Positions 3,143 through 64,000 are shown, numbered from the stretch's first letter. The stretch: DNA of 64,000 nt from an uncultured Clostridia bacterium (GCA_944384425.1 CALWTI010000002.1:448-64447); one strand, 5' to 3'. Program-made: numbers and translations. Notes: generated by a model from the sequence alone, not told the origin.

Positions 3143-4084
3143 ATGAAAAAAGACAAAACTTTTATTAAAGTATTTTCCCTTATCCTGTTTTCTGTGTTTC
3201 TAATTGCCTTTTCTGCAGGATACTCAGTATACAAACTAAACAATGAAGTTCAAACTGTCCTCCCACCTTCTGCTGGTGCAGACGACATAGGGGGACAAAT
3301 TGAAGACGCAGAGCCACCAACTTCATCAGACCCTTCAAATCCACAACCAGAAAAACCACAAACCGTCCCACTTTACAACAACGCTTTCCAATGTCTTGAA
3401 GATGCTTTCGCTCTCATTGACAATTGCAAGGGCTACAAAATAACATCAACCATGACTGCAATTACTGACATATTTGGCATGGGAAGTGCGACGCAGTCAG
3501 TTAGAGAAATGGCAATGCTTTCAGGAGATTTCTATTTTAAAGAAACACAAGCAAGTTGTTCAACAAGTCTTGGCGAAAATTTTTATAGATATTTTTATAG
3601 CGAAGACGGTGGAGAAAATGTTGAATACAGAAAAACATCATCATACAATGACAATATTCCAAATTGGGACAAAACGACAGAAAGCACAACAACTTCAAAA
3701 GATGAAATTATAGCAAAATATGACGGCAACGCATATGACCTATTTCCATTTCGCTCAAATAAAGAAAATTCTCGACTTGTGAAATTTGACAGAGCATCTG
3801 ATGACACATACTATATCATCTCAACAATATACACCCCTTCAATGATTCCTGAAAAATATATAGAAAACGCAAAAAGAGAAGGCGGACTAAGTAACATAAA
3901 ATATACAAGTCTAACCATAACTTATTATATTGAAAAAGCAACGCTTTATATGCGTAAAGTCGAAAGAGTTGAAGAATATTCAATAACAAAAGGTGTCACA
4001 CTAGATGTCTCTGCAAGCTACAATCTATTCGTGAATATAATCGATCAAGAAATTCCCGCACAAAAACCTAGTTATTGCTACTAA
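3143..4084 (+). CDS. Hypothetical secreted or membrane-anchored protein
   Basis: The 313 aa ORF has the N-terminal anchor FIKVFSLILFSVFLIAFSAG followed by a Pro/Ser-rich linker. No family was recognised. Confidence 0.6.
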   Translation: MKKDKTFIKVFSLILFSVFLIAFSAGYSVYKLNNEVQTVLPPSAGADDIGGQIEDAEPPTSSDPSNPQPEKPQTVPLYNNAFQCLEDAFALIDNCKGYKITSTMTAITDIFGMGSATQSVREMAMLSGDFYFKETQASCSTSLGENFYRYFYSEDGGENVEYRKTSSYNDNIPNWDKTTESTTTSKDEIIAKYDGNAYDLFPFRSNKENSRLVKFDRASDDTYYIISTIYTPSMIPEKYIENAKREGGLSNIKYTSLTITYYIEKATLYMRKVERVEEYSITKGVTLDVSASYNLFVNIIDQEIPAQKPSYCY

Positions 4085-4757
4085 TTCTTGACAAAACTTC
4101 ATTAAGCACTTCTTTATGTATATCTTCAATTGACCTAACACCTTGTTCATTAACACAACTTACTTTAATGTAGTTGTGTCTATAACACAAGTTCAAATAT
4201 GTCTTTTCACTTCTTTCAAGATACTGCTCGTCCGACTCATGTTGGTCGGGTTTTTCTTTTCTTGACTGTTGAAGAACTTTCGCAACTTTTGCTGGCATAT
4301 GTAAAAATATTGTGATATCTGGCTTTGGAAGTTGCAAAAGGTCATATTCAAGAACGTCCAGAAAGTGAAAAATTTTCTCGCGCTCAAAATCGTCGGCAGC
4401 CTTTGCTCCTTGATGGGCAAAGTTCGAATCAACATATCTATCAACCACAACATTGACACCACTGTCAAGCTTATCGGTTATGTGTTTAATATTGTATTTT
4501 CTATCTGCTGCATAGTAAAGACTTGCAACACGTGGATCAACATTTGATGCCCCTTCTGGAAAAAGTGGCGCACCATACCCCTCTTTCCCAAGATATGGCC
4601 CTGCAATTATCTTTCCTGTTGGACTGTCATAATTTGGAAAACAATATTTTTCAACCGGTATATTTCTTTGCTTTAGTGCCTCAATAAGCAAATCACTTTG
4701 TGTCTGTTTTCCAGAACAGTCTGTACCCTCAATTACAATCAATTTTCCTTTTTCCAT
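4068..4757 (-). CDS. tmk: Thymidylate (dTMP) kinase family protein
   Basis: The P-loop reads LIVIEGTDCSGKQTQ. VVDRY and a lid-like region are also present. The 229 aa length is longer than a typical Tmk. Confidence 0.75.
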   Translation of the reverse strand: MEKGKLIVIEGTDCSGKQTQSDLLIEALKQRNIPVEKYCFPNYDSPTGKIIAGPYLGKEGYGAPLFPEGASNVDPRVASLYYAADRKYNIKHITDKLDSGVNVVVDRYVDSNFAHQGAKAADDFEREKIFHFLDVLEYDLLQLPKPDITIFLHMPAKVAKVLQQSRKEKPDQHESDEQYLERSEKTYLNLCYRHNYIKVSCVNEQGVRSIEDIHKEVLNEVLSRISSNN

Positions 4758-17614: not shown

Positions 17615-18703
17615 TTAAATTCTTTTAAGCCTGTCCTTTGGCTCGTTTTTCTTCTCTTTGTGCTTGTCTATTGCATCGTTAATAGCATCAAATATTGGGG
17701 TCATAACAAGTCCTACAATTTGACCTGTTATCATGTAAAGTGAAAACATTGTGGTATAAAATAGTGTAAAGAACGCCATGAAAACTGTCATAAATATTGC
17801 TGTTCCGTATCCTAATTTTTGCGCGCCGCTTTGCTTGTTTTTTCTAATCACAAGCCATTGGTTCAAAAATGTTACGCCGGCGACAATTATGAGCAAAATA
17901 AAGTATCCATTAGTTCTTCCGTTTGACTCGCGAAGTGGGTCCATTATACTATCATAGACATTTTTAAATTCTTCATTTTCTTTTTCTTCTTTTGTCAGCC
18001 TTGCGACGCTTGCATACTCAGAGTATGAAGGAATTGAATTTTTGAAAGGACTGTCTGCCATCCAAATATTATCTATCCACAAAAAGCTTACTTTTGTCTG
18101 CTTGTACTTTTCAACAACATTTTGGTTCGCCGTCTCAATTATTTGTGTCTTTACTTCACCTTCTTCAAGTCCATTCATTATAGCAACAACAGGTGCACAT
18201 ACATCATAAACGCTTACTCCTTCTTGATTGAAGTTAAGTTCTATGCTGTTGTCTTCTGCGTATTCTTGAACATACGCTACCATAAGTTGTTCATACTGGT
18301 CTTGAATTTTGTAACTTGCCATTGCATTCATACCATTTAATAGGGTGATGAATATTGCAAGCGTTAAACCTAAATTTAAAACCATAATCCAACATGAGCC
18401 CATAGGGTTTATTTTTTCACGCTTGTATAGCTCTGCTAGTTTTTGATTTTTAAGGTTTGGATCATTTGCATACTTTTTGTTTATTGCGTCCATTTGTGGC
18501 TGAATTTTTGCTTGCATTTTCGCCATGTTTCTCGACGTTCTTCGGTTGAAAAAATCTATTGGCGACATAACAACTTTTATTATGAGCGTCAATAGAATAA
18601 TTGATATTGCAAAATTACCAATACCACTTTCAAAAAATGTTATTATTTTTTCCCACATTCCGTTTGGTTGAGTTGCCAACAGAGTTGAAATTAAATTAGC
18701 CAT
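17615..18703 (-). CDS. yidC: Membrane protein insertase YidC/Oxa1 family
   Basis: The 362 aa ORF is multi-TM. KMQAKIQPQMDAINKKY and NPMGSCW motifs are present. The gene is in the conserved position after rnpA-yidD. Confidence 0.88.
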   Translation of the reverse strand: MANLISTLLATQPNGMWEKIITFFESGIGNFAISIILLTLIIKVVMSPIDFFNRRTSRNMAKMQAKIQPQMDAINKKYANDPNLKNQKLAELYKREKINPMGSCWIMVLNLGLTLAIFITLLNGMNAMASYKIQDQYEQLMVAYVQEYAEDNSIELNFNQEGVSVYDVCAPVVAIMNGLEEGEVKTQIIETANQNVVEKYKQTKVSFLWIDNIWMADSPFKNSIPSYSEYASVARLTKEEKENEEFKNVYDSIMDPLRESNGRTNGYFILLIIVAGVTFLNQWLVIRKNKQSGAQKLGYGTAIFMTVFMAFFTLFYTTMFSLYMITGQIVGLVMTPIFDAINDAIDKHKEKKNEPKDRLKRI

Positions 18704-18975
18704 TTACTATCTCCCTTGATGTTTTGAGGTAAAAAGTCATATCCGCCGTCATGCTTTGGCCCGCACCTAATTATTCTTTTAAAAGAAAGATATATTCCTT
18801 TAAAAACTCCAAACTCTTTTATTGCAAGGTATGAATATTTGGAGCATGAGGGGATATATCTGCAAGTGTGGGGAAGAAGTGGAGAGATGCACCACCTGTA
18901 TATGTTTACAAAAAACATACACAAAAGTTTAATTGGATATGACAAAACTTTAATCACTTTCGACATAAAGCCCAT
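18691..18975 (-). CDS. yidD: Membrane protein insertion efficiency factor YidD
   Basis: The motif ISPLLPHTCRYIPSCSKYSYLAIKEFG...RCGPKHDGGYDFLP is present. The true start may be the ATG at 18966 (MSKVIK). Confidence 0.85.
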   Translation of the reverse strand: MGFMSKVIKVLSYPIKLLCMFFVNIYRWCISPLLPHTCRYIPSCSKYSYLAIKEFGVFKGIYLSFKRIIRCGPKHDGGYDFLPQNIKGDSKWLI

Positions 18976-19297
18976 TTCTTTTTAAAATTTCCAACATATT
19001 TTGCCTTATCTCAAAATATGATTTTTCTTCAATACCTTTTTTAGCTGTGAAAACATAGTTGTATGATTTGTTGATATTTTTTAAAAGAGAAACAAAGCTC
19101 TCTCTAAGTCTTCTTTTAACTTTGTTTCTTACAACACTTTTCCCAATCTTTTTAGATACAGAAAAACCAACTTTAACTGTCCTTAGTTTTGTTTTCACGT
19201 ATGTCAAGGTTAGTAATTCATAACTCTTTGTTTCACCATGCTTATAAACATATATGAAATGTTTGTTTTTTCTAAGTCTGTTTTCACTTTTAATCAT
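18950..19297 (-). CDS. rnpA: Ribonuclease P protein component
   Basis: The 115 aa ORF is basic. KIGKSVVRNKVKRRLRE is present. It lies directly downstream of rpmH. Confidence 0.9.
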   Translation of the reverse strand: MIKSENRLRKNKHFIYVYKHGETKSYELLTLTYVKTKLRTVKVGFSVSKKIGKSVVRNKVKRRLRESFVSLLKNINKSYNYVFTAKKGIEEKSYFEIRQNMLEILKRNGLYVESD

Positions 19298-19301
19298 CTA
19301 G

Positions 19302-19442
19302 TTATGCCGCCAAAACTTTTCTGCCTCTGTTTCTTCTTCTCTTGAGAACGTTTCTACCACCTTGGGTACGCATTCTTTGCCTAAAACCGTGGACTTTTTG
19401 TCTTCTTCTCTTTTTAGGTTGATATGTTCTCTTCATAGCCAT
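19302..19442 (-). CDS. rpmH: 50S ribosomal protein L34
   Basis: This ORF is too short for the track. My translation is [46 protein letters not shown]. An RBS GGAGGA lies 9 nt upstream. Confidence 0.93.
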
Positions 19443-19527
19443 AATAAAAAATCCTCCTATTCTTTTTTGGTTTCACAAGTAGACCTAAGCGATAAAAAAC
19501 AAGAATAGTCTTTTGCAAAACTATTCT

Positions 19528-19556
19528 AGTATAAATTACAAATCTTTGTTTGTCAA
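19528..19556 (-). promoter_or_regulatory. Putative sigma-A promoter of rpmH-rnpA
   Basis: On the minus strand TTGACA (19556..19551), a 17 nt spacer and TATACT (19533..19528) are present. Confidence 0.55.
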
Positions 19557-19617
19557 TCAATTTCATTTGCACAAACAAAAACAAGCTTTCTTAAATAATA
19601 TACAAACAACAAAAAAA

Positions 19618-19736
19618 CAAGTGAGGCGAGGCTCGACATGTCGTGACACGCACGAGTTTAGTTTCCTAAACGACCGTGTGGCACGGCATGGCAGTAAACG
19701 AAGCAAGAAAAAATTTTTAATTTTTTCGGTCACGCA
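19618..19736 (-). repeat. Structured intergenic element, copy a (type I arms)
   Basis: The minus strand reads ...CTTCGTTTACTGC-CATGCCGTGCCACAC-GGTCGTTTAGGAAACTAAACTC-GTGCGTGTCACGACATG-TCGAGCCTCGCC. It lies between the dnaN stop and the rpmH promoter. Confidence 0.8.
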
Positions 19737-19749
19737 GTTTTTTTGTCTG

Positions 19750-20862
19750 TTAGTTTATCATTCTGACTGGCAATATAAGATATAGATATTGGTCATTATC
19801 ACTATCAACTGGCGTTATTGTGCAAGGGTTTGTTGGACCTTGGAAGTTGATTTTAACAAACTCGTCTGTTGTTACTCTGAAAACTTCCAAGAAGTATCTT
19901 GCGTTAAATGCAATGAGTAAGTCTTTTCCTTCCAAAACAACGCTTATCTTTTCTTTGATATTTCCTATGTCTGAGTTTGATGTCAAAAGCATTGTGTCTT
20001 CTTTTATATCGAACTTGACTAAGTTGTTTTGACCAATCTTTGAAAGTAGTGAAGCTCTTTCAAGTGCATCAACAAGCTGTGCCTTGTTTACTGTGATGAC
20101 TGTGTCTTTTGCCGATGCCATTATTATTTGTTTGTAGTTCAAAAATTCGCCTTCCAAAAGTCTTGTTATTATCTTTGTGTCACCTTGGTCAACCATAAGA
20201 AAGTTTTTGTTCACATACACATTCACTTGTTCGTCTGAGTCGTCCAAAAGTTTAGATATCTCTCTCAAAGATTTATCTGGCACTATGCAAGATGTTTCAA
20301 TGTTTGAATAGGTGAGTGGCTTTTTCGCAAGACTTAGTCTATATCCATCACTTGTGACTGCCTTTATGGTGTCGTGATTTATTTCAAGCAAACATCCACG
20401 AAGTATTGGACGAGAGTCGTCTATTGCAACTGAGAATATGACGCTGTTTATCAAGTCTTTAAGATTTATGTTGCTTATTCCAAAATACTCTTTTGAGTCC
20501 ATAAGGTTGATATCTGGATATTCTCTTTCAACAAAGCATTGAATGTATCCTTCACTGTCAAGATATTTTATTTTTAGTCCGTTGTTTTGTTCGAGTGTGA
20601 GTTCAATTTTGTCATTTGTCAATTTTTTGACATACTCAGAGAAGAATTTTCCTGGAACAACACAACTTCCTTCTTCTTTGACTTCGGCTTTTATCTTTTT
20701 TTCAATAGACAGTTCAAGGTCTGTTGAAAATAGCGTTAGTGTGTCATCTTCTGCAACAAGCTTTATTCCTTCTAAGATAGGGTTTGTTGTTTTTACCGCT
20801 ATCGCTTTGCTTACTTTAAGTACTGCATCAGCAAGGTCCAATCCTTCACAAATAATTTGCAT
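19750..20862 (-). CDS. dnaN: DNA polymerase III beta sliding clamp
   Basis: The 370 aa ORF begins MQIICEGLDLADAVLKVSKAIAVKTTNPILEGIKL and ends with LILPVRM. It lies downstream of dnaA. Confidence 0.93.
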   Translation of the reverse strand: MQIICEGLDLADAVLKVSKAIAVKTTNPILEGIKLVAEDDTLTLFSTDLELSIEKKIKAEVKEEGSCVVPGKFFSEYVKKLTNDKIELTLEQNNGLKIKYLDSEGYIQCFVEREYPDINLMDSKEYFGISNINLKDLINSVIFSVAIDDSRPILRGCLLEINHDTIKAVTSDGYRLSLAKKPLTYSNIETSCIVPDKSLREISKLLDDSDEQVNVYVNKNFLMVDQGDTKIITRLLEGEFLNYKQIIMASAKDTVITVNKAQLVDALERASLLSKIGQNNLVKFDIKEDTMLLTSNSDIGNIKEKISVVLEGKDLLIAFNARYFLEVFRVTTDEFVKINFQGPTNPCTITPVDSDNDQYLYLILPVRMIN

Positions 20863-20880
20863 TTTTTTACTTCCTTTTAA

Positions 20881-20932
20881 TTTTTTATTTTTTTATTTAA
20901 ATTGTTGTAGTATTAGTAATAGATGTGGATAT
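20881..20932. promoter_or_regulatory. Candidate oriC unwinding module: AT-rich tract, DnaA-trio-like repeats and a DnaA box
   Basis: The tract TTTTTTATTTTTTTATTTAAATTGTTG is followed by TAG TAT TAG TAA TAG (20908..20922). The box TGTGGATAT follows at 20924..20932. Further imperfect boxes are TGTGAATAC at 21003..21011 and TGTGCATAA at 21016..21024. Confidence 0.55.
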
Positions 20933-21056
20933 GTTAACTAAATTTTTGTCACACAATAAATTGTATTTATGGTATGCATTATCTCAAAAACTTTCCATAT
21001 GTTGTGAATACAAAATGTGCATAACTTGTTGATAAAAAATTATTTTTGTAAACATA

Positions 21057-22415
21057 TCAACATTTTTCACTTAATTGACTCTTTAAGTCGTTGACAATGG
21101 TCTTTGTTTTGTGGTCTTTTTTTATAAGTTCTGTTATCTTATCGCGGGAGTGAATGATTGTTGTGTGGTCTCTTCCACCGAACAATTTACCTATTGTCAC
21201 AAGTGGAATATCTAGCATTTCACTAATAAGGTAAATTGCCATCATTCTTGGTTCAACAATTTCTTTTGACTTTTTCTTGCCTGTTATTTCATTATAGCCA
21301 ATTGAGTAGTAGTCACAAACTGTTTGAATAATCATCTCAGGCGTAAGCTTTTCTTTTTTGACATCTATTTGTTCTTTTAAAGCCTCTTTTGCTTCTTCAA
21401 TTGTCGCACTCTTTTTGCCAAGTAATGTCGCAAAGAAGTACACTTTACTCAAAAGTCCTTCCATTTCACGAATGTTGGTGTCAACTTTCTCTGCAATAAA
21501 TTCAATCACATCGTCATCTATAAAGTATCTTTCAAGTTGTGCCTTTTTTCTAAGAATAGCAACCCTTGTTTCAAAGTCTGGCATTTGAATGTCTTGAATA
21601 AGTCCGCTTGTTAGTCTGCTGACAAGTCTGTCGGCAAGTGTTTCAATTTCTTTTGGTGGTCTATCTGATGAAATGATTATTTGCTTGTTTTGTTGATAAA
21701 GGTCGTTAAAGGTGTGGAAAAACTCTTCCTGTGTGCTTGTTCGTCCTGCAATGAATTGAATATCATCAACCATAAGAACGTCAAGGTTACGATATTTCTC
21801 TCTAAATTGTGCCGTGCCTTTGACTGAGCCTTTTTCTTTGTTTGTGCCAAGTGATTCAATGTAGTCATTTGTGAACTGGTCACAAGTGACATATTCAATT
21901 TTTAGTTTTGGGTTAGATTGCTTCAAATAGTTGCCAATTGCGTGAAGAAGGTGAGTTTTTCCAAGTCCAACGCCACCATATATAAATAGTGGGTTAAATT
22001 TATGCCCTGGGTTTTCTGCAACTGCACGTGCTGCCGCATAGCAAAATTGATTACTTTTTCCAACAATAAAGTTATCAAATGTGTATTTTGGGTTAAACAT
22101 CATCTTTTGTGATTCGTCGGGTTCAATAACTTTTTCTTGTGGTTTATTTTTTTTGAGATATTCTTCTTTTTCGTCTGGGTCAAGTACTTCAAAGCCTGTT
22201 CCTTCGCCAAACACACTTTCAATTGCCTCGGTCAATTCTTTTGAGTGGTTTTTGAGCAGTTGTCTTTTAGCAGAAGGTGAGTTTGCAACAAGCACAAGTT
22301 TGTCTTTATAGTCCAAAACTTCAAGCGTTTCAATCCATAATTCATATGAAACAAAACTAACCATGCTTTCAAGTTTTGAAAGAACGTTGTCCCACATTTG
22401 TTTTAAGTCTTGCAT
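21057..22415 (-). CDS. dnaA: Chromosomal replication initiator DnaA
   Basis: The Walker A region reads NPLFIYGGVGLGKTHLLHAIGN. The domain IV motif reads GGRDHTTIIHSRDKI. Confidence 0.96.
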   Translation of the reverse strand: MQDLKQMWDNVLSKLESMVSFVSYELWIETLEVLDYKDKLVLVANSPSAKRQLLKNHSKELTEAIESVFGEGTGFEVLDPDEKEEYLKKNKPQEKVIEPDESQKMMFNPKYTFDNFIVGKSNQFCYAAARAVAENPGHKFNPLFIYGGVGLGKTHLLHAIGNYLKQSNPKLKIEYVTCDQFTNDYIESLGTNKEKGSVKGTAQFREKYRNLDVLMVDDIQFIAGRTSTQEEFFHTFNDLYQQNKQIIISSDRPPKEIETLADRLVSRLTSGLIQDIQMPDFETRVAILRKKAQLERYFIDDDVIEFIAEKVDTNIREMEGLLSKVYFFATLLGKKSATIEEAKEALKEQIDVKKEKLTPEMIIQTVCDYYSIGYNEITGKKKSKEIVEPRMMAIYLISEMLDIPLVTIGKLFGGRDHTTIIHSRDKITELIKKDHKTKTIVNDLKSQLSEKC

Positions 22416-22456
22416 TTATTTCTCCATGTTAATTATATATTAAACACCATAAGTTG

Positions 22457-23494
22457 TCAAACTTCGGTGTTTTGTTTTTTGGTCTTATCTTTTTTTTGCT
22501 TTTTTTCTTTATCTTTCTCTTTGTGTTTTTCTTTTTTCTCTTTTCTTTTTTGTTTATATGTTTTTACAAACTTTTCAAAAGCGTCAGGCTGATGTTCTTC
22601 AAGGGGTTTAACAGCCACTTTTTCATCTCTGACATCGAGAGGTTTTTCATTGAATGGCAAAACGACTTGGTCGTTTCTAAGTCTAACTTCAAGTTGGTTA
22701 TATGGCATTTGAATATTATCACGCTTGAACTCGTTAAAAACATTTTCCATAACATAGTAATATACATCCCAATAGTCTTCACCATAGCACCAGCAGTTTG
22801 AATATATGGATATACTGCTGTCACCAAGTTTTTCAAGCGCACAAAATGGTGCAGGGGTCAAAAGCACTTTGTTGCAACTTGTCATAACACTGAGAATTAC
22901 TTGCTTTGCTTTTTCAACATCGCTTGCATAGTCAATGCTAAAACTAAAAACAACTTTTCTTGTCTTGTTGTGACTGTAATTGATAAGTTCACTTCCAACA
23001 ACAGTGCTGTTTGGTATGCTTATTGTCTTGTTGTCAGTAGTTGTGATTATTGTGTGGAGCATATTTATTTCTTTGACTGTGCCTTCAACGTCGTCAATCT
23101 TTATGTAGTCGCCTTCATTAAAAGGACGAGTTGTTATTATCACCACGCCGTTTGCAAGGTTTGAAAGACTGTCTTGCATTGCAAGAGAAAGAGCAAGTCC
23201 AGCCGCAGAGATAACTGCAATAAAGCCAGTGATTGGTATCCCGATGATTTGACAAATTGCAATCAAAAGTAGCATATATAGCGAAAATTTGATAACTGTC
23301 AACAAAAATTTTGCCGTGACAGATGGCATTTTGGTTTTTGAGAATATTTTTCTCAATAGTTTAACAACTAGTTTGATGACGATAAATCCCAGTATAAAAA
23401 CGCCTATGCATTGAAGTATGTTAAGTCCAACAGTTTTTATTATATTAACAGCTTCATCTTTTAGTGCGTTCCAGTCTATTAAAAGTAAACTCAT
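22457..23494 (-). CDS. MscS-family mechanosensitive channel with a K/E-rich C-terminal tail
   Basis: TM segments are followed by ITTRPFNEGDYIKIDDVEGTVKEINMLHTIITTTDNKTISIPNS, the MscS beta domain. The tail reads KQKRKEKKEKHKEKDKEKKQKKDK. Confidence 0.85.
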   Translation of the reverse strand: MSLLLIDWNALKDEAVNIIKTVGLNILQCIGVFILGFIVIKLVVKLLRKIFSKTKMPSVTAKFLLTVIKFSLYMLLLIAICQIIGIPITGFIAVISAAGLALSLAMQDSLSNLANGVVIITTRPFNEGDYIKIDDVEGTVKEINMLHTIITTTDNKTISIPNSTVVGSELINYSHNKTRKVVFSFSIDYASDVEKAKQVILSVMTSCNKVLLTPAPFCALEKLGDSSISIYSNCWCYGEDYWDVYYYVMENVFNEFKRDNIQMPYNQLEVRLRNDQVVLPFNEKPLDVRDEKVAVKPLEEHQPDAFEKFVKTYKQKRKEKKEKHKEKDKEKKQKKDKTKKQNTEV

Positions 23495-23675
23495 AATTTC
23501 TCCTTTGTATCACCATTATTGTATTATTATGTGCATAATTTGTCAAAAAAAAGTCACAGTGATGGCGAAAAACTTGATTTGTGATATGGTAAAGACTTTA
23601 AGAGTGTTATTTGATTGACATGACAATAAAAAACATTTATAGTAAAAATACAACAAATGATAAGGAAGGATAATT

Positions 23676-23942
23676 ATGGACGAAGATGAAGAGTTAAATT
23701 ACAGATATGACACACAACTTTTGATTGACGGAAAAGACTTGGACGAAGACAAGATAAAAGACTACTTCAACAAAAACTTTGTTGGAGATTGTTTGCTTGT
23801 CGTCGGCGACAGTGAACTTATAAAAATTCACTATCACACAAACGAGCCATGGAAAGTACTTGAATATTGTTCAACACTTGGCGAGATATACGACATAGTG
23901 GTGGAGGATATGTTTCGTCAAGCTAAAGGTCTCCAAGGCTAA
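23676..23942 (+). pseudogene. Isolated fragment of a DAK2/YloV-family gene (88 codons)
   Basis: GDCLLVVGDSELIKIHYHTNEPWKVLEYCSTLGEIYDIVVEDMFRQ matches the segment at the end of the Dak2 domain in YloV-like proteins, which are about 550 aa. Neither the N-terminal Dak2 part nor the C-terminal half is present. Confidence 0.55.
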
Positions 23943-23946
23943 AAAA

Positions 23947-24070
23947 ACACAAAATTGTGGGCGAATACTTTGTTTCTGGTGGGCAACCCTCACACAGTCA
24001 CGTACGAAGTACGCTCGTGCGTGAGGGTACCCACCGAGCCTCGTCTTCTCCTCACAATTTTGTGTTTTTT
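23947..24070 (+). repeat. Structured intergenic element, copy b (type III arms, swapped mini-hairpin)
   Basis: The outer stem pairs ACACAAAATTGTG with CACAATTTTGTGT and is followed by a T-run. The core reads GCGAATACTTTGTTTCTG-GTGGGCAACCCTCACAC-AGTCA-CGTAC-GAA-GTACG-CTC-GTGCGTGAGGGTACCCAC-CGAGCCTCGTC. Confidence 0.8.
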
Positions 24071-24182
24071 ACTTAATATTTACATATCTACGAAAAATCT
24101 ATGCAAAATTGTGCCGAAAGTGCAGTTTTTGACCCAAGACTAGTCTTACTTGTTTTTCGGCTTTTTTTATGTATAAATAAAA

Positions 24183-24296
24183 CTTCGTAATACGTCGTTT
24201 ACTGCCATGCCGTGCCACACAGTCGTTTAGGAAGTTAAACTCGTGCGTGTCACGACATGTCGAGCTTCGTCTTCTCCTCACAATTTTGTGTTTTTT
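24183..24296 (+). repeat. Structured intergenic element, copy c (type I arms)
   Basis: The sequence reads CTTCGTAATACGTCGTTTACTGC-CATGCCGTGCCACAC-AGTCGTTTAGGAAGTTAAACTC-GTGCGTGTCACGACATG-TCGAGCTTCGTC. Confidence 0.8.
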
Positions 24297-24410
24297 ACTT
24301 AATATTTACATATCTACGAAAAACATATGAAAAGTGTGCCGAAAGTGCAGTTTTTGACCCAAGATTAGTCTTACTTGTTTTTTGACAGTTTGTTTTTTTT
24401 GTTTCAAAAC

Positions 24411-24504
24411 GGCGCGATACTTTGTTTACTGCAAAACGCCCCAAAACAGTCATTTAGGTAAAACTAAACTCCTGCTTTGGGGCATTTTGCGAGCCTCGTC
24501 TTCT
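24411..24504 (+). repeat. Structured intergenic element, copy d (type II arms)
   Basis: The sequence reads GGCGCGATACTTTGTTTACT-GCAAAACGCCCCAAAACAG-TCATTTAGGTAAAACTAAACTC-CTGCTTTGGGGCATTTTGC-GAGCCTCGTC. Confidence 0.8.
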
Positions 24505-24586
24505 AACAAACAAAAAACTTCGTAATATGGTATTTGTTTATTCTTTTAGAATGTAGAATGTTTTTTATTGTAATAAAAGCATTTTT

Positions 24587-42454: not shown

Positions 42455-42506
42455 CTACAAAAAAAGATAGAGTAAACAACACTATCTCGGCGTGTAGACA
42501 AACAAT

Positions 42507-42656
42507 CAGACTGCCGAAAAACAAGTGAGGCGAGGCTCGCAAAATGCCCAAAAGCAGGAGTTTAGTTACCTAAATGACTGTTTTTGGGCGTTTTGCAGTA
42601 AACAAAGCAAGAAAAAATTTTAAATTTTTTCGGTCACGAAGGTTTTCGACAGTCTG
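42507..42656 (-). repeat. Structured intergenic element, copy e (type II arms, most complete copy)
   Basis: The outer stem pairs CAGACTGCCGAAAA with GTTTTCGACAGTCTG. The plus strand reads GAGGCTC-GCAAAATGCCCAAAAGCAG-GAGTTTAGTTACCTAAATGA-CTGTTTTTGGGCGTTTTGC-AGTAAACAAAGCAAG. Confidence 0.8.
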
Positions 42657-42682
42657 AGATAGCGTAAATAACGCTATCTTTT

Positions 42683-45637: not shown

Positions 45638-45719
45638 GCGAGTGTGGCGGAATGGCAGACGCGCTTGTTTAAGGGGCAAGTGGGAAACCGTATGGGTTCA
45701 AGTCCCGTCACTCGCACCA
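45638..45719 (+). tRNA. tRNA-Leu with anticodon AAG (class II, encoded CCA)
   Basis: I folded it by hand. The acceptor pairs GCGAGTG with CACTCGC. The anticodon stem pairs CTTGT with GCAAG and the loop is TT-AAG-GG. The short variable arm is GG-GAAA-CC. The T-arm is ATGGG-TTCAAGT-CCCGT. Confidence 0.8.
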
Positions 45720-45727
45720 AAAGAAAA

Positions 45728-45747
45728 AGACCGAAAGGTCTTTTTTT
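45728..45747 (+). terminator. Terminator after tRNA-Leu
   Basis: The hairpin AGACC-GAAA-GGTCT is followed by T7. Confidence 0.65.
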
Positions 45748-45899
45748 ATTGGTGCTGGGCTAGGTACAATGTACGCGTCTGCCATTTTTCGGGGTCCCCA
45801 AAAAGTACCCACGGAAACTTTTTAGGGGAGAGGAGAAACTGAGCGAAAAGCGAAAATTTGCGAAAAGCAAATTGAAGAGATAAGCGAGAGTTTCGACGA

Positions 45900-45962
45900 A
45901 GACGCGCTTGTTTAAGGGGCAAGTTCGAAAGAGTATGGGTTCAAGTCCCGTCACTCGCACCA
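45900..45962 (+). pseudogene. Duplicated 3' fragment of tRNA-Leu(AAG), from the D-arm 3' side to the CCA
   Basis: AGACGCGCTTGTTTAAGGGGCAAGT and TATGGGTTCAAGTCCCGTCACTCGCACCA are identical to the intact gene. The variable arm is changed in a compensatory way (TC-GAAA-GA). The 5' acceptor strand and D-arm are missing. Confidence 0.8.
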
Positions 45963-45978
45963 AAAAACGCACCAAAAA

Positions 45979-46075
45979 GCTGCGAAATACTTTGTTTCTG
46001 GTGTGCCAAGCCACACAGTCATTTAGGGAACTAAACTCCTGCGTGGACTTGACACGCCGAGCCTTGTCTTTCTGG
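45979..46075 (+). repeat. Structured intergenic element, copy f (type IV arms)
   Basis: The sequence reads GCTGCGAAATACTTTGTTTCTG-GTGTGCCAAGCCACAC-AGTCATTTAGGGAACTAAACTC-CTGCGTGGACTTGACACGC-CGAGCCTTGTC. Confidence 0.75.
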
Positions 46076-46107
46076 TTTTTTGGTGGTTTTTTATTATACA
46101 TTATAAT

Positions 46108-46175
46108 ACTGCGTTTACTGCAATGCTAGGCTAGACAGTCATTTAGGTAATTAAACTCTTGAGCATTAGTATGAA
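46108..46175 (+). repeat. Degenerate copy g of the structured element
   Basis: The sequence reads ACTGCGTTTACTGC-AATGCTAGGCTAGAC-AGTCATTTAGGTAATTAAACTC-TTGAGCATT. Arm pairing is mostly lost. Confidence 0.55.
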
Positions 46176-46298
46176 GTTCCAAAAACTTATGCTTATTTTT
46201 TCGTTAAAGTATTTAAATGTTACTTTAGAAATAAAATCTTTTTGAATCTTAATGAATGCAACAAATAAATTTACTTAATCAAAATTAAATGTTATATT

Positions 46299-50946: not shown

Positions 50947-51627
50947 ATGAAAGGTAAGAGATATTCACAAGCAAAAAGCCAAATCGAAAACAGACTTTAT
51001 GATGTTGAAGAAGGCTTCGCTCTCTTAGAGAGTTTGCCAAAGGCAAAGTTTGACGAAACAGTTGAACTTCATGTTCGCCTTGGCGTTGATGGTAGAAATG
51101 CCGACCAACAAGTTCGTGGAGTTGTTGTTCTTCCAAATGGAACAGGTAAGAGCGTTAAAGTTTTGGTCATCGCCAAAGGTGAAAAAGCTAAAGAAGCTGA
51201 AGAAGCAGGCGCAGATTATGTTGGAGCAGAAGAAATTGTTCAAAAAATCCAAACACAAAACTGGCTTGACTTTGATGTCTGCATAACAACACCAGATATG
51301 ATGGGCGTTGTTGGTAGAATAGCAAGAATTTTGGGACCAAAAGGACTTATGCCAAACCCAAAGAGTGGAACAGTTACAATGGATGTCAAAAAAGCAATTC
51401 ATGATGTCAAAGCAGGTAAAGTTGAATACCGTTTGGACAAAGGTAACAATGTCCATGTTGTAATTGGAAAAGTTAGCTTTGGAAAAGACAAACTCGTTGA
51501 AAACTACAACACACTTATGTCAGCACTCATAAAAGCAAAGCCAGCATCAGCAAAAGGACAATATATCCGTAATGTTGTTGTTGCAACTACTATGGGCGCT
51601 GGGGTTAAACTCTCAACAAGAGCCTAA
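50947..51627 (+). CDS. rplA: 50S ribosomal protein L1
   Basis: [24 protein letters not shown] is present, and [16 protein letters not shown] follows later. Confidence 0.97.
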
Positions 51628-51631
51628 TTAT

Positions 51632-51765
51632 TAGACTGCCGAAAGACTTCGCAATACGTCGTTTACTGCCATGCCGTGCCACACAGTCGTTTAGGGAACT
51701 AAACTCGTGCGTGTCACGACATGTCGAGCCTCGTCTTGCTAGGTTTTTGTCAGTCTATTTTTTTT
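51632..51765 (+). repeat. Structured intergenic element, copy h (type I arms)
   Basis: The outer stem pairs TAGACTGCCGAAA with TTTTTGTCAGTCTA and is followed by T8. The core reads CTTCGCAATACGTCGTTTACTGC-CATGCCGTGCCACAC-AGTCGTTTAGGGAACTAAACTC-GTGCGTGTCACGACATG-TCGAGCCTCGTC. Confidence 0.8.
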
Positions 51766-51772
51766 AGTGCTT

Positions 51773-51840
51773 GCCGAAAACCGTCGCAATACTTTGTTTC
51801 TGCTACAAAGCAAAATATAAGAACATTGCTTTGCAGTTTG
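51773..51840 (+). repeat. Short variant (copy i) of the structured element
   Basis: The sequence reads GCCGAAAACCGTCGCAATACTTTGTTTCTGC, then the simple hairpin TACAAAGCAA-loop-TTGCTTTGCA. The conserved loop and the CGAGCCTCG tail are absent. Confidence 0.55.

Positions 51841-62852: not shown

Positions 62853-64000
<1,148 letters not shown>

Follow-up and report, generated by a model that had tools for sequence, protein, structure and literature searches.

The window, by which we mean the whole 64-kb stretch of DNA analysed (G+C content 34.6%), contains several features of familiar kind. A SAM-I riboswitch (1148-1237; 53.7 bits) lies upstream of an ORF at 1280-2371, and the start of a 23S rRNA gene occupies the right edge (62853-64000). 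The replication origin region spans 17615-23942 and carries dnaA-dnaN-rpmH-rnpA-yidC co-directionally on the - strand, an unusual order; cumulative GC skew is lowest at about 20-30 kb. Scattered among the genes is a short hairpin element, copies of which flank dnaA-dnaN, with copy a just after dnaN and copies b-d about 1.5 kb past dnaA. Strands are given below for F, the orientation of the original prediction, in which a mini-hairpin (TTTAG-loop-CTAAA) is followed by CTC.

19598..19749, - strand: copy a, built as copy e (model match 19612-19717, 95.9 bits)
19750-20862, - strand: dnaN
21057-22415, - strand: dnaA
23947..24070, + strand: copy b (model match 23954-24058, 58.3 bits)
24183..24296, + strand: copy c, unit 2 of a tandem array (model match 24179-24284, 74.3 bits)
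24411..24504, + strand: copy d, unit 3 of the array (model match 24406-24513, 97 bits)
42465..42487: first copy of a flanking duplication, AGATAGAGTAAACAACACTATCT on the + strand, abutting copy e and matching the second copy at 19 of 23 bases
42488..42656, - strand: copy e, full-length, 169 nt, ends taken from an alignment of 37 full-length copies (model match 42516-42621, 116.6 bits, E 3e-27)
42657..42679: second copy of the flanking duplication, AGATAGCGTAAATAACGCTATCT, adjoining copy e
45976..46081, + strand: copy f, short form (model match, 96 bits)
46095..46201, + strand: copy g, degenerate (model match, 39.6 bits)
51632..51765, + strand: copy h (model match 51643-51748, 90.7 bits)
51773..51840, + strand: copy i, remnant (missed by the model)

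Nine copies had been predicted, and all nine stretches are present where they were placed, though one of them, copy i, is a decayed remnant. A covariance model built from 111 copies was run unfiltered over the whole window and matched the other eight (a-h) at 39.6-116.6 bits (E-values 3e-27 to 2e-7) and no further copies. The pattern AGTCRTTTAGG-N2-7-YTAAACTC occurs six times in the window and never in 100 shuffles, and CGAGCCTCG, allowing at most one mismatch, is confined to the copies, with 12 strand matches in the window against 1.7 expected. The element is about 95-190 bp long and non-coding, and is present as eight model-matched copies in the 64 kb of the window.

Copy e, originally delimited as 42507-42656, in reality occupies 42488-42656 and includes a second, degenerate terminal repeat. 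Its parts follow one another as a left terminal repeat (CAGACTGTCGAAAAC), an A/T mini-hairpin module, GTTTACTG and a 19-bp arm; then CAG-TCA-[TTTAG/CTAAA]-CTC-CTG, the return arm and CGAGCCTCG; and finally an inner right repeat (GTTTTTCGGCAGTCTG) and the degenerate outer right repeat (ATTGTTTGTCTACACGCCG). Copy a begins immediately after the dnaN stop codon and has small deletions that match between both halves of its outer stem. Copy b stands directly 3' of the stop of an 88-aa gene, with a mini-hairpin of CGTAC-GAA-GTACG and an outer stem of CACAAAATTGTG / CACAATTTTGTG followed by T6; its subtype also occurs in L095 and L115-L122 (L numbers denote element loci collected from other contigs). 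Copy h starts 5 nt past the rplA stop codon and has terminal repeats TAGACTGCCGAAAG / TTTTTGTCAGTCTA followed by T8. Copies a, b and h thus all begin 0-8 nt past a stop codon. Copy f is located after a duplicated tRNA-Leu 3' end and has an ortholog with identical arms in L095. Decay is evident in copies g and i and in the spacers of the array at 23.9-24.5 kb: copy g, rightly described at the outset as degenerate, has lost its 3' arm, and its 5' arm occurs in L076 as part of an intact copy, while copy i consists of the conserved 5' flank fused to an unrelated small hairpin. Because conspecific strains with an identical L1 protein (L118, L120 and L121) have fuller elements at the same site, copy i is taken as a deletion remnant.

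A second small repeat, unrelated to the hairpin element and about 130-150 nt long (GGGGNNCCCC ... TTTTTGGGGAGAGGAGAAA ... GAGTTTCGACGAAG), lies at 45720-45962, between the tRNA-Leu(aag) gene (45638-45719) and a partial tRNA-Leu copy (45884-45962) with the same 3' end (GGTTCAAGTCCCGTCACTCGCACCA). It recurs at L095 1560-1700 and is nested in L001, L015, L047, L058, L072, L073 and L104; outside the window it interrupts the long arm of hairpin elements, pointing either way.

Alignment of 111 distinct copies, with a structure derived from RNAalifold and completed by hand, indicates that the whole element folds as one long imperfect hairpin. Paired cells amount to 85.1% (69.1% in shuffles), changes on both sides occur in 16 of the 25 pairs, and double-change cells number 418 (126 in shuffles). 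The covariation score is 0.353 against 0.096 in shuffles, none of 500 reaching the observed value, and scores fall to 0.06-0.12 in a control where pairing partners are slid by one to three columns. Covariation extends over the long arm, the 5-bp mini-hairpin and the outer stems, and the fixed parts are GTTT(A)CTG, CAG-TCA/CTC-CTG and CGAGCCTYG. The pattern used for collection demanded the apical motif and CGAGC, so the invariance of these two follows in part from the selection itself; GTTT(A)CTG on the 5' side, CCTYG and the CAG/CTG pairs lie outside the pattern and are nevertheless at least 90% conserved. The mini-hairpin exists in at least eight compensated versions, including those of copies matched by the model but not by the exact pattern (TTTAG/CTAAA, CGTAC/GTACG, TGTAC/GTACA, TTTGG/CCAAA, TGAAC/GTTCA, TTGAC/GTCAA, CTTAC/GTAAG, TTTGC/GCAAA and CTTGC/GCAAG), and across them neither the 3x3 internal loop TCA/CTC nor the CAG/CTG pairs change. 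The next stem outward covaries in turn (GCAATAC/GTCTTGC, GTGATAC/GTCTCAC, GAAATAC/GTCTTTC and GCCATGC/GCCTGGC).

Two observations of the original prediction are borne out here: the compensatory swap to CGTAC/GTACG in copy b is real, being one of the versions also met in other genomes, and the general picture of changing but always paired helices next to conserved unpaired segments survives both the covariation tests and the survey of mini-hairpins. The four versions of the long arm, by contrast, had been called unrelated, but they can be aligned and differ by compensated substitutions, and have therefore diverged from one another. Since helices change yet still pair and unpaired segments are conserved, the comparison of sequences supports selection on a folded single strand, be it RNA or DNA.

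The two strands are not equivalent in this fold. At two fixed positions of the arm, the F strand has C.A in 78 and A.C in 83 of the 111 copies, mismatches that become G.U wobbles on the opposite strand. Among 88 distinct arm pairs, A.C and C.A together total 180 against 29 for G.T and T.G, and 59 against 28 when the two fixed positions are left out. The internal loop reads TCA/CTC on F and GAG/UGA on the opposite strand, where tandem G.A pairs could form. RNA parameters favour the fold of the strand opposite F in 110 of 111 copies (by 11.1 kcal/mol), and DNA parameters favour it in 108 of 111 (by 4.4 kcal/mol). The apical loop on F starts with G and ends with A.

Full-length copies, including that at 42488-42656, end in imperfect terminal inverted repeats (CAGACTGYCGAAAAAC). 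The 37 aligned copies have in common the ends CAGACTGTYGAAAAAC on the left and GTTTTTGAACAGTCTG on the right, the latter followed by a second degenerate copy (ATTTGTCTACANNCTG); outside these ends lies locus-specific sequence that is repeated on both sides of each copy. Boundaries drawn from the fold or by stem extension overshoot these ends, with A-runs pairing with T-runs and the two hairpin duplicates with one another. The outermost stems vary by subtype within one genome (CAGACTG..., CACAAAATTGTG..., CCAAAAAGC...), and the sequence common to all subtypes is internal only. At copy e the duplicated flanks are AGATAGCGTTATTTACGCTATCT and AGATAGTGTTGTTTACTCTATCT: an A-run followed by a small hairpin at 42465..42487, which reads as a terminator on the - strand, and a hairpin followed by TTTTT at 42657..42679, which reads as a terminator on the + strand. 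Unrelated sequences occupy the same position at other loci, for example AGATAACATTTGTGTTATCT on either side of the element in L113 and AGAGCAAGCCAATTTTAGGCTTGCTC in L040.

Most full-length copies carry such duplications. Flank pairs exceed the 99th percentile of mismatched-locus controls in 35 of 53 cases, with a median score of 14.5 compared with a control median of 6 and maximum of 12. When stricter ends are applied, direct repeats abut both ends in 30 of 46 full-ended copies; the other 16 have no clear duplication, and the short forms show none. The 30 duplications measure 13-29 bp (median 21.5) and are unrelated in sequence between loci; 26 fold as a hairpin, and 24 adjoin an A- or T-run (both in nine copies, T only in six, A only in nine). 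Given these hairpin folds and adjoining runs, the duplicated target is a terminator-like hairpin, and the length of the duplication tracks this hairpin, not a fixed stagger. After insertion the A-run stays with the left copy of the hairpin and the T-run with the right, so that a terminator survives for each direction and the element comes to lie within both 3' untranslated regions. Scanning metagenomes for copy e's empty site gave only seven unrelated terminators, and a search among all element loci collected returned no empty site; we therefore infer insertion from the duplications alone.

The element was present in at least 113 contigs in an exact-pattern scan of 185,579 species genomes. Judged by record titles among the matches listed, hosts are nearly all gut metagenome-assembled genomes (MAGs), labelled Clostridia, Christensenella, Catabacter, Christensenellaceae or Christensenellales, or as Candidatus genera from chicken gut; two listed contigs come from a MAG labelled Spirochaetales and one from a MAG labelled Rickettsiales, as recorded. 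Several MAGs each supply many of the listed contigs, indicating many copies per genome, and some of the contigs are 92-96% identical to parts of the window. The core pattern had no match in 2.9 million viral contigs, and copy e had no relative in 72,556 plasmids (blastn).

Comparison of close relatives indicates turnover. Genomes that are 92-96% identical have different subtypes behind the same gene; after the 88-aa gene, L079 (95% identical) carries a different subtype from the window. After rplA, L095 (92.6% identical) shares the outer repeats with the window and differs from it at six compensated positions in the arm and two in the next stem. Among contigs with an identical L1 protein, the number of elements behind rplA ranges from one to four, and the junctions fall within conserved segments; L119 resembles a recombinant whose joint lies in the conserved 5' segment, and in one strain (L118) an IS200 is inserted behind rplA. 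The stretch at 23947-24504 in the window is a three-element tandem array with a period of about 230 bp, present as two or three units depending on the strain; its spacers are decayed 3' halves of further elements, and chimeric arms occur in the array strains L135, L134 and L136.

These features alter the view, taken in the original prediction, of a selected structure rather than a decaying MITE. Terminal inverted repeats bound the full-length copies, with duplications specific to each locus beside them; related strains and species differ in the elements found behind a given gene; and several copies in the window are decaying. The element has several properties of a MITE, being short, non-coding, present in many copies, bounded by terminal inverted repeats and flanked by a target-site duplication, albeit one of unusually variable length. 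It is mobile, and its lineages keep the fold.

The best reading, to which we assign a probability of about 60%, is a non-autonomous MITE-like element with structure-directed insertion at terminator hairpins that requires its own fold to propagate. What is observed comprises the copies with their fold and its covariation, the terminal repeats, flanking duplications the size of hairpins, placement at gene 3' ends and turnover between strains; from these we infer an enzyme, a cruciform target and a need for the fold in movement. A trans-acting enzyme would read DNA by its shape and target intrinsic terminators in hairpin or cruciform form. The element would be joined at the two feet of the target hairpin, and gap repair would then leave one hairpin copy on each side. 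Short forms would instead land inside the terminator hairpin or replace it, and subsequently serve as the terminator stem themselves; those standing between A- and T-runs (copies b and h, and L079) could reflect either this replacement outcome or selection for terminator function. If the element's own fold is needed for movement, only lineages with paired stems and the internal-loop sequences would multiply, and this may be why the stems covary. Inserted copies would recombine through their conserved segments, yielding tandem arrays and decay, and landing in 3' untranslated sequence with a terminator left for each direction would keep the cost to the host low.

The genes around the copies offer no obvious candidate for the enzyme. 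The original prediction had reported no transposase or RAYT gene in the window, and ORF clustering is in agreement, with none evident beside copies: among 732 ORFs clustered for a shared neighbour gene, only housekeeping families and a large serine recombinase in five loci emerged. No autonomous element or transposase with these ends was found in 0.95 Mb of element loci, and the terminal repeat away from the element cores is found only in nested or truncated copies, without an ORF-bearing element. A phmmer search of all six-frame ORFs of the 0.95 Mb with an approximate IS5 transposase sequence, a weak test, detected no IS5/IS1182-like (DUF772-type) ORF. The large serine recombinases (Resolvase + Recombinase + Zn_ribbon_recom) lie about 0.1-1.5 kb from elements in L009, L025, L039, L086 and L098; as mover they were rejected, three of the five loci being one orthologous site and the arrangements inconsistent. 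In L039 and L086 the hairpin duplicate is missing downstream of the element, which would be consistent with integration of another mobile element at that border. A further large serine recombinase occurs at L114 1-96, near the tRNA-Leu/peptidase region of a strain close to that of the window.

Some features count against the preferred reading. It is unusual, if a transposase reads the termini, that the only sequence common to all subtypes is internal; binding of double-stranded ends by a transposase would give, on its own, no reason for the interior to be paired; and varying termini with constant internal loops, together with the strand asymmetry, do not fit a simple terminus-binding transposase. 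A new mechanism is conceivable, though we think it unlikely, in which donor and target would both be recognized as extruded hairpins by a structure-reading enzyme, not by a terminus-binding DDE transposase. The donor would be the rod-like hairpin, with the internal loops as its only family-wide conserved bases, and the target any terminator stem-loop, with strand transfer at the hairpin foot. Such an enzyme would be a protein specific for junctions or hairpins, either new or repurposed, and the fixed C.A and A.C mismatches (G.U on the opposite strand) would mark the strand used.

A comparably improbable explanation is that the element is a host-selected structured RNA of 3' untranslated regions, acting as terminator, mRNA 3'-end stabilizer or protein-binding site, with genomic spread as a secondary matter. 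Gene orientation accords with this: with genes called by a simple long-ORF method, the element lies in the sense strand of the upstream gene (F frame) in 85 of 94 cases, the downstream gene is unbiased (43 vs 45), and elements between tandem genes are co-directional in 29 cases and opposed in eight. Junctions are convergent in 34 cases and divergent in five; this placement, together with the co-directional upstream genes, also speaks for the preferred reading. Between tandem genes, full-ended copies show less bias (12:5) than short forms (24:7). The short forms b and h have T-runs directly after the outer stem, as a U-run criterion for termination would expect. The G...A apical loop, with 41 of 55 tetraloops conforming to GNRA on the sense strand, the covarying stems with conserved unpaired bases, which are the usual signature of functional RNA, and conservation of the family across an order-level group likewise favour an RNA role. 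However, RNA from the sense strand has the poorer fold in 110 of 111 copies, with pyrimidine-pyrimidine loops and A.C mismatches, and the full-length copy e has its T-run inside the outer stem, not directly after the hairpin, and sits between two small terminators. Gain, loss, truncation and shuffling between near-identical strains argue against an essential role at each site. In addition, Rfam 15 has no match to any copy at the gathering threshold, consistent with the earlier statement that no known RNA family fits; relaxing the search to E 10 gave best E-values of 0.29 and 0.85, far below threshold.

It is less likely still that the element resembles REPs or REPINs, moving as a single-stranded DNA hairpin through an HUH (Y1) transposase such as a RAYT or the TnpA of IS200/IS605. 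Its hairpin arms are compensated as described for REPINs, and GTTTAC lies 5' of the hairpin foot. F falls on the locally G-rich (leading) strand in 86 cases and on the other in 22, and at convergent junctions in 17 and seven, which fits strand-specific insertion at the replication fork, but local GC skew tracks gene direction, so that effects of transcription and replication are confounded here; this bias too is weaker for full-ended copies (23:11) than for short forms (53:6). A Y1_Tnp gene adjoins elements in the conspecific strain L118, yet it belongs to an ordinary IS200 with unrelated end hairpins of its own (CCCCCAGATAGTCTGGGGG), and no element-flanked Y1 gene is present in the 0.95 Mb of loci. 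A GTAG or CGTC tag is also missing from the element. Targets are not duplicated in Y1 transposition, and the duplications in 30 of 46 full copies render this mechanism less likely. The L118 insertion itself (3459-4240; IS200 type, 153-aa Y1_Tnp) lies in an element-rich spacer after rplA, in a strain with the same L1 protein as that encoded at 50947-51627 in the window, and has at its left end an 84-bp tandem duplication that includes the hairpin.

Opposite F, the copies show conserved AGGAG, the mini-hairpin and ATGACTG (e.g. 42553-42585 on the + strand of the window), which look like a ribosome-binding site and start codon with a hairpin between, and may be a relic of the start of a parent element's transposase gene or a product of chance. 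That this strand codes for a small protein, beginning ATG ACT G behind the Shine-Dalgarno-like AGGAG, is highly improbable and was dropped, as the frame is not preserved: AGGAG is conserved, ATG occurs in 116 of 121 copies and the median length of its frame is 26 codons (15 and 0 for the others), but stops follow after three or eight codons in several subfamilies, copies of the a, c and h subtype have ACG in place of ATG, the peptides vary freely, and arm variation is compensatory without codon periodicity.

To our knowledge, structure-directed transposition has few known cases, IS1272 being one, and is poorly understood. If the preferred reading, a mobile element inserting at terminator hairpins, is true, the family would supply hundreds of natural insertions in many species, with the target hairpin readable on both sides, and the rules of target choice would become directly analysable. 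A mobile element can evidently bear the full signature of a functional RNA, with conserved loops and covarying stems, which calls for caution in metagenome screens. The hosts are abundant and mostly uncultured gut Christensenellales. Within them, 3' untranslated regions and terminators are shaped by the element, which also fragments assemblies and drives rearrangement between strains beside core genes (dnaN, rplA and tRNA-Leu).

Several known systems have features in common with the element. Like REPs and REPINs, it is an extragenic palindrome at gene 3' ends whose arms are kept complementary and which forms clusters and mosaics; unlike them, it has no GTAG/CGTC tag (its flanks being GTTT(A)CTG and CGAGCCTYG) and no RAYT was found, it has target duplications, and it is one long hairpin as opposed to two short palindromes. 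It resembles the hairpin MITEs Correia/NEMIS, RUP, BOX, ERIC and bcr1 in being short, non-coding, high-copy and intergenic with terminal inverted repeats, and in being co-transcribed with neighbours and subject to modular variation, decay and recombination. Those elements have short fixed duplications (e.g. TA or TTTAT) and are each known from one genus or group of species, whereas the duplications here are 13-29 bp and sized by the target hairpin, the family is common to many species of an order-level group, and compensation runs along nearly the whole stem with conserved internal loops.

Two further systems offer analogies only. Class C group II introns home to intrinsic terminators, but the element has no intron domains or Rfam match. 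Cas1-type integrases attach DNA to each border of a palindromic repeat, which is thereby duplicated at a fixed length; unlike Cas1-Cas2 or casposase systems, the element has no linked Cas1 gene and its duplications vary in length. The statement in the original prediction that there is no attC core also holds, with GTTTACTG and CGAGCCTCG misfitting RYYYAAC ... GTTRRRY and no integrase nearby. The IS1202 family, with duplications of 27-28 bp, was rejected as these are of fixed length and its ends are TGT.

In its target behaviour, the element is most closely likened to IS1272 of the IS1182 family. IS1272 targets stem-loops of any sequence, 21-85 bp in size and often just downstream of genes (PMC5678879). 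In the model proposed for it, the point of attack on an extruded cruciform determines whether the stem-loop is replaced, the stem-loop is duplicated or the loop only is duplicated, and the insert may also come to lie between the two stem-loop arms (PMC5678879). IS1272 is autonomous, about 1.9 kb long and encodes a DDE transposase; it also occurs with a tandem duplicate of one terminal repeat, and in the documented cases the stem-loop is replaced without duplication (PMC5678879). The hairpin element similarly takes stem-loop targets of any sequence and variable size downstream of genes, has a tandem second terminal repeat at one end and, in its full-length copies, fits the duplication outcome of that model. 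Unlike IS1272, it has no transposase gene, duplicates the target hairpin, and has an interior that is itself a conserved, covarying hairpin.
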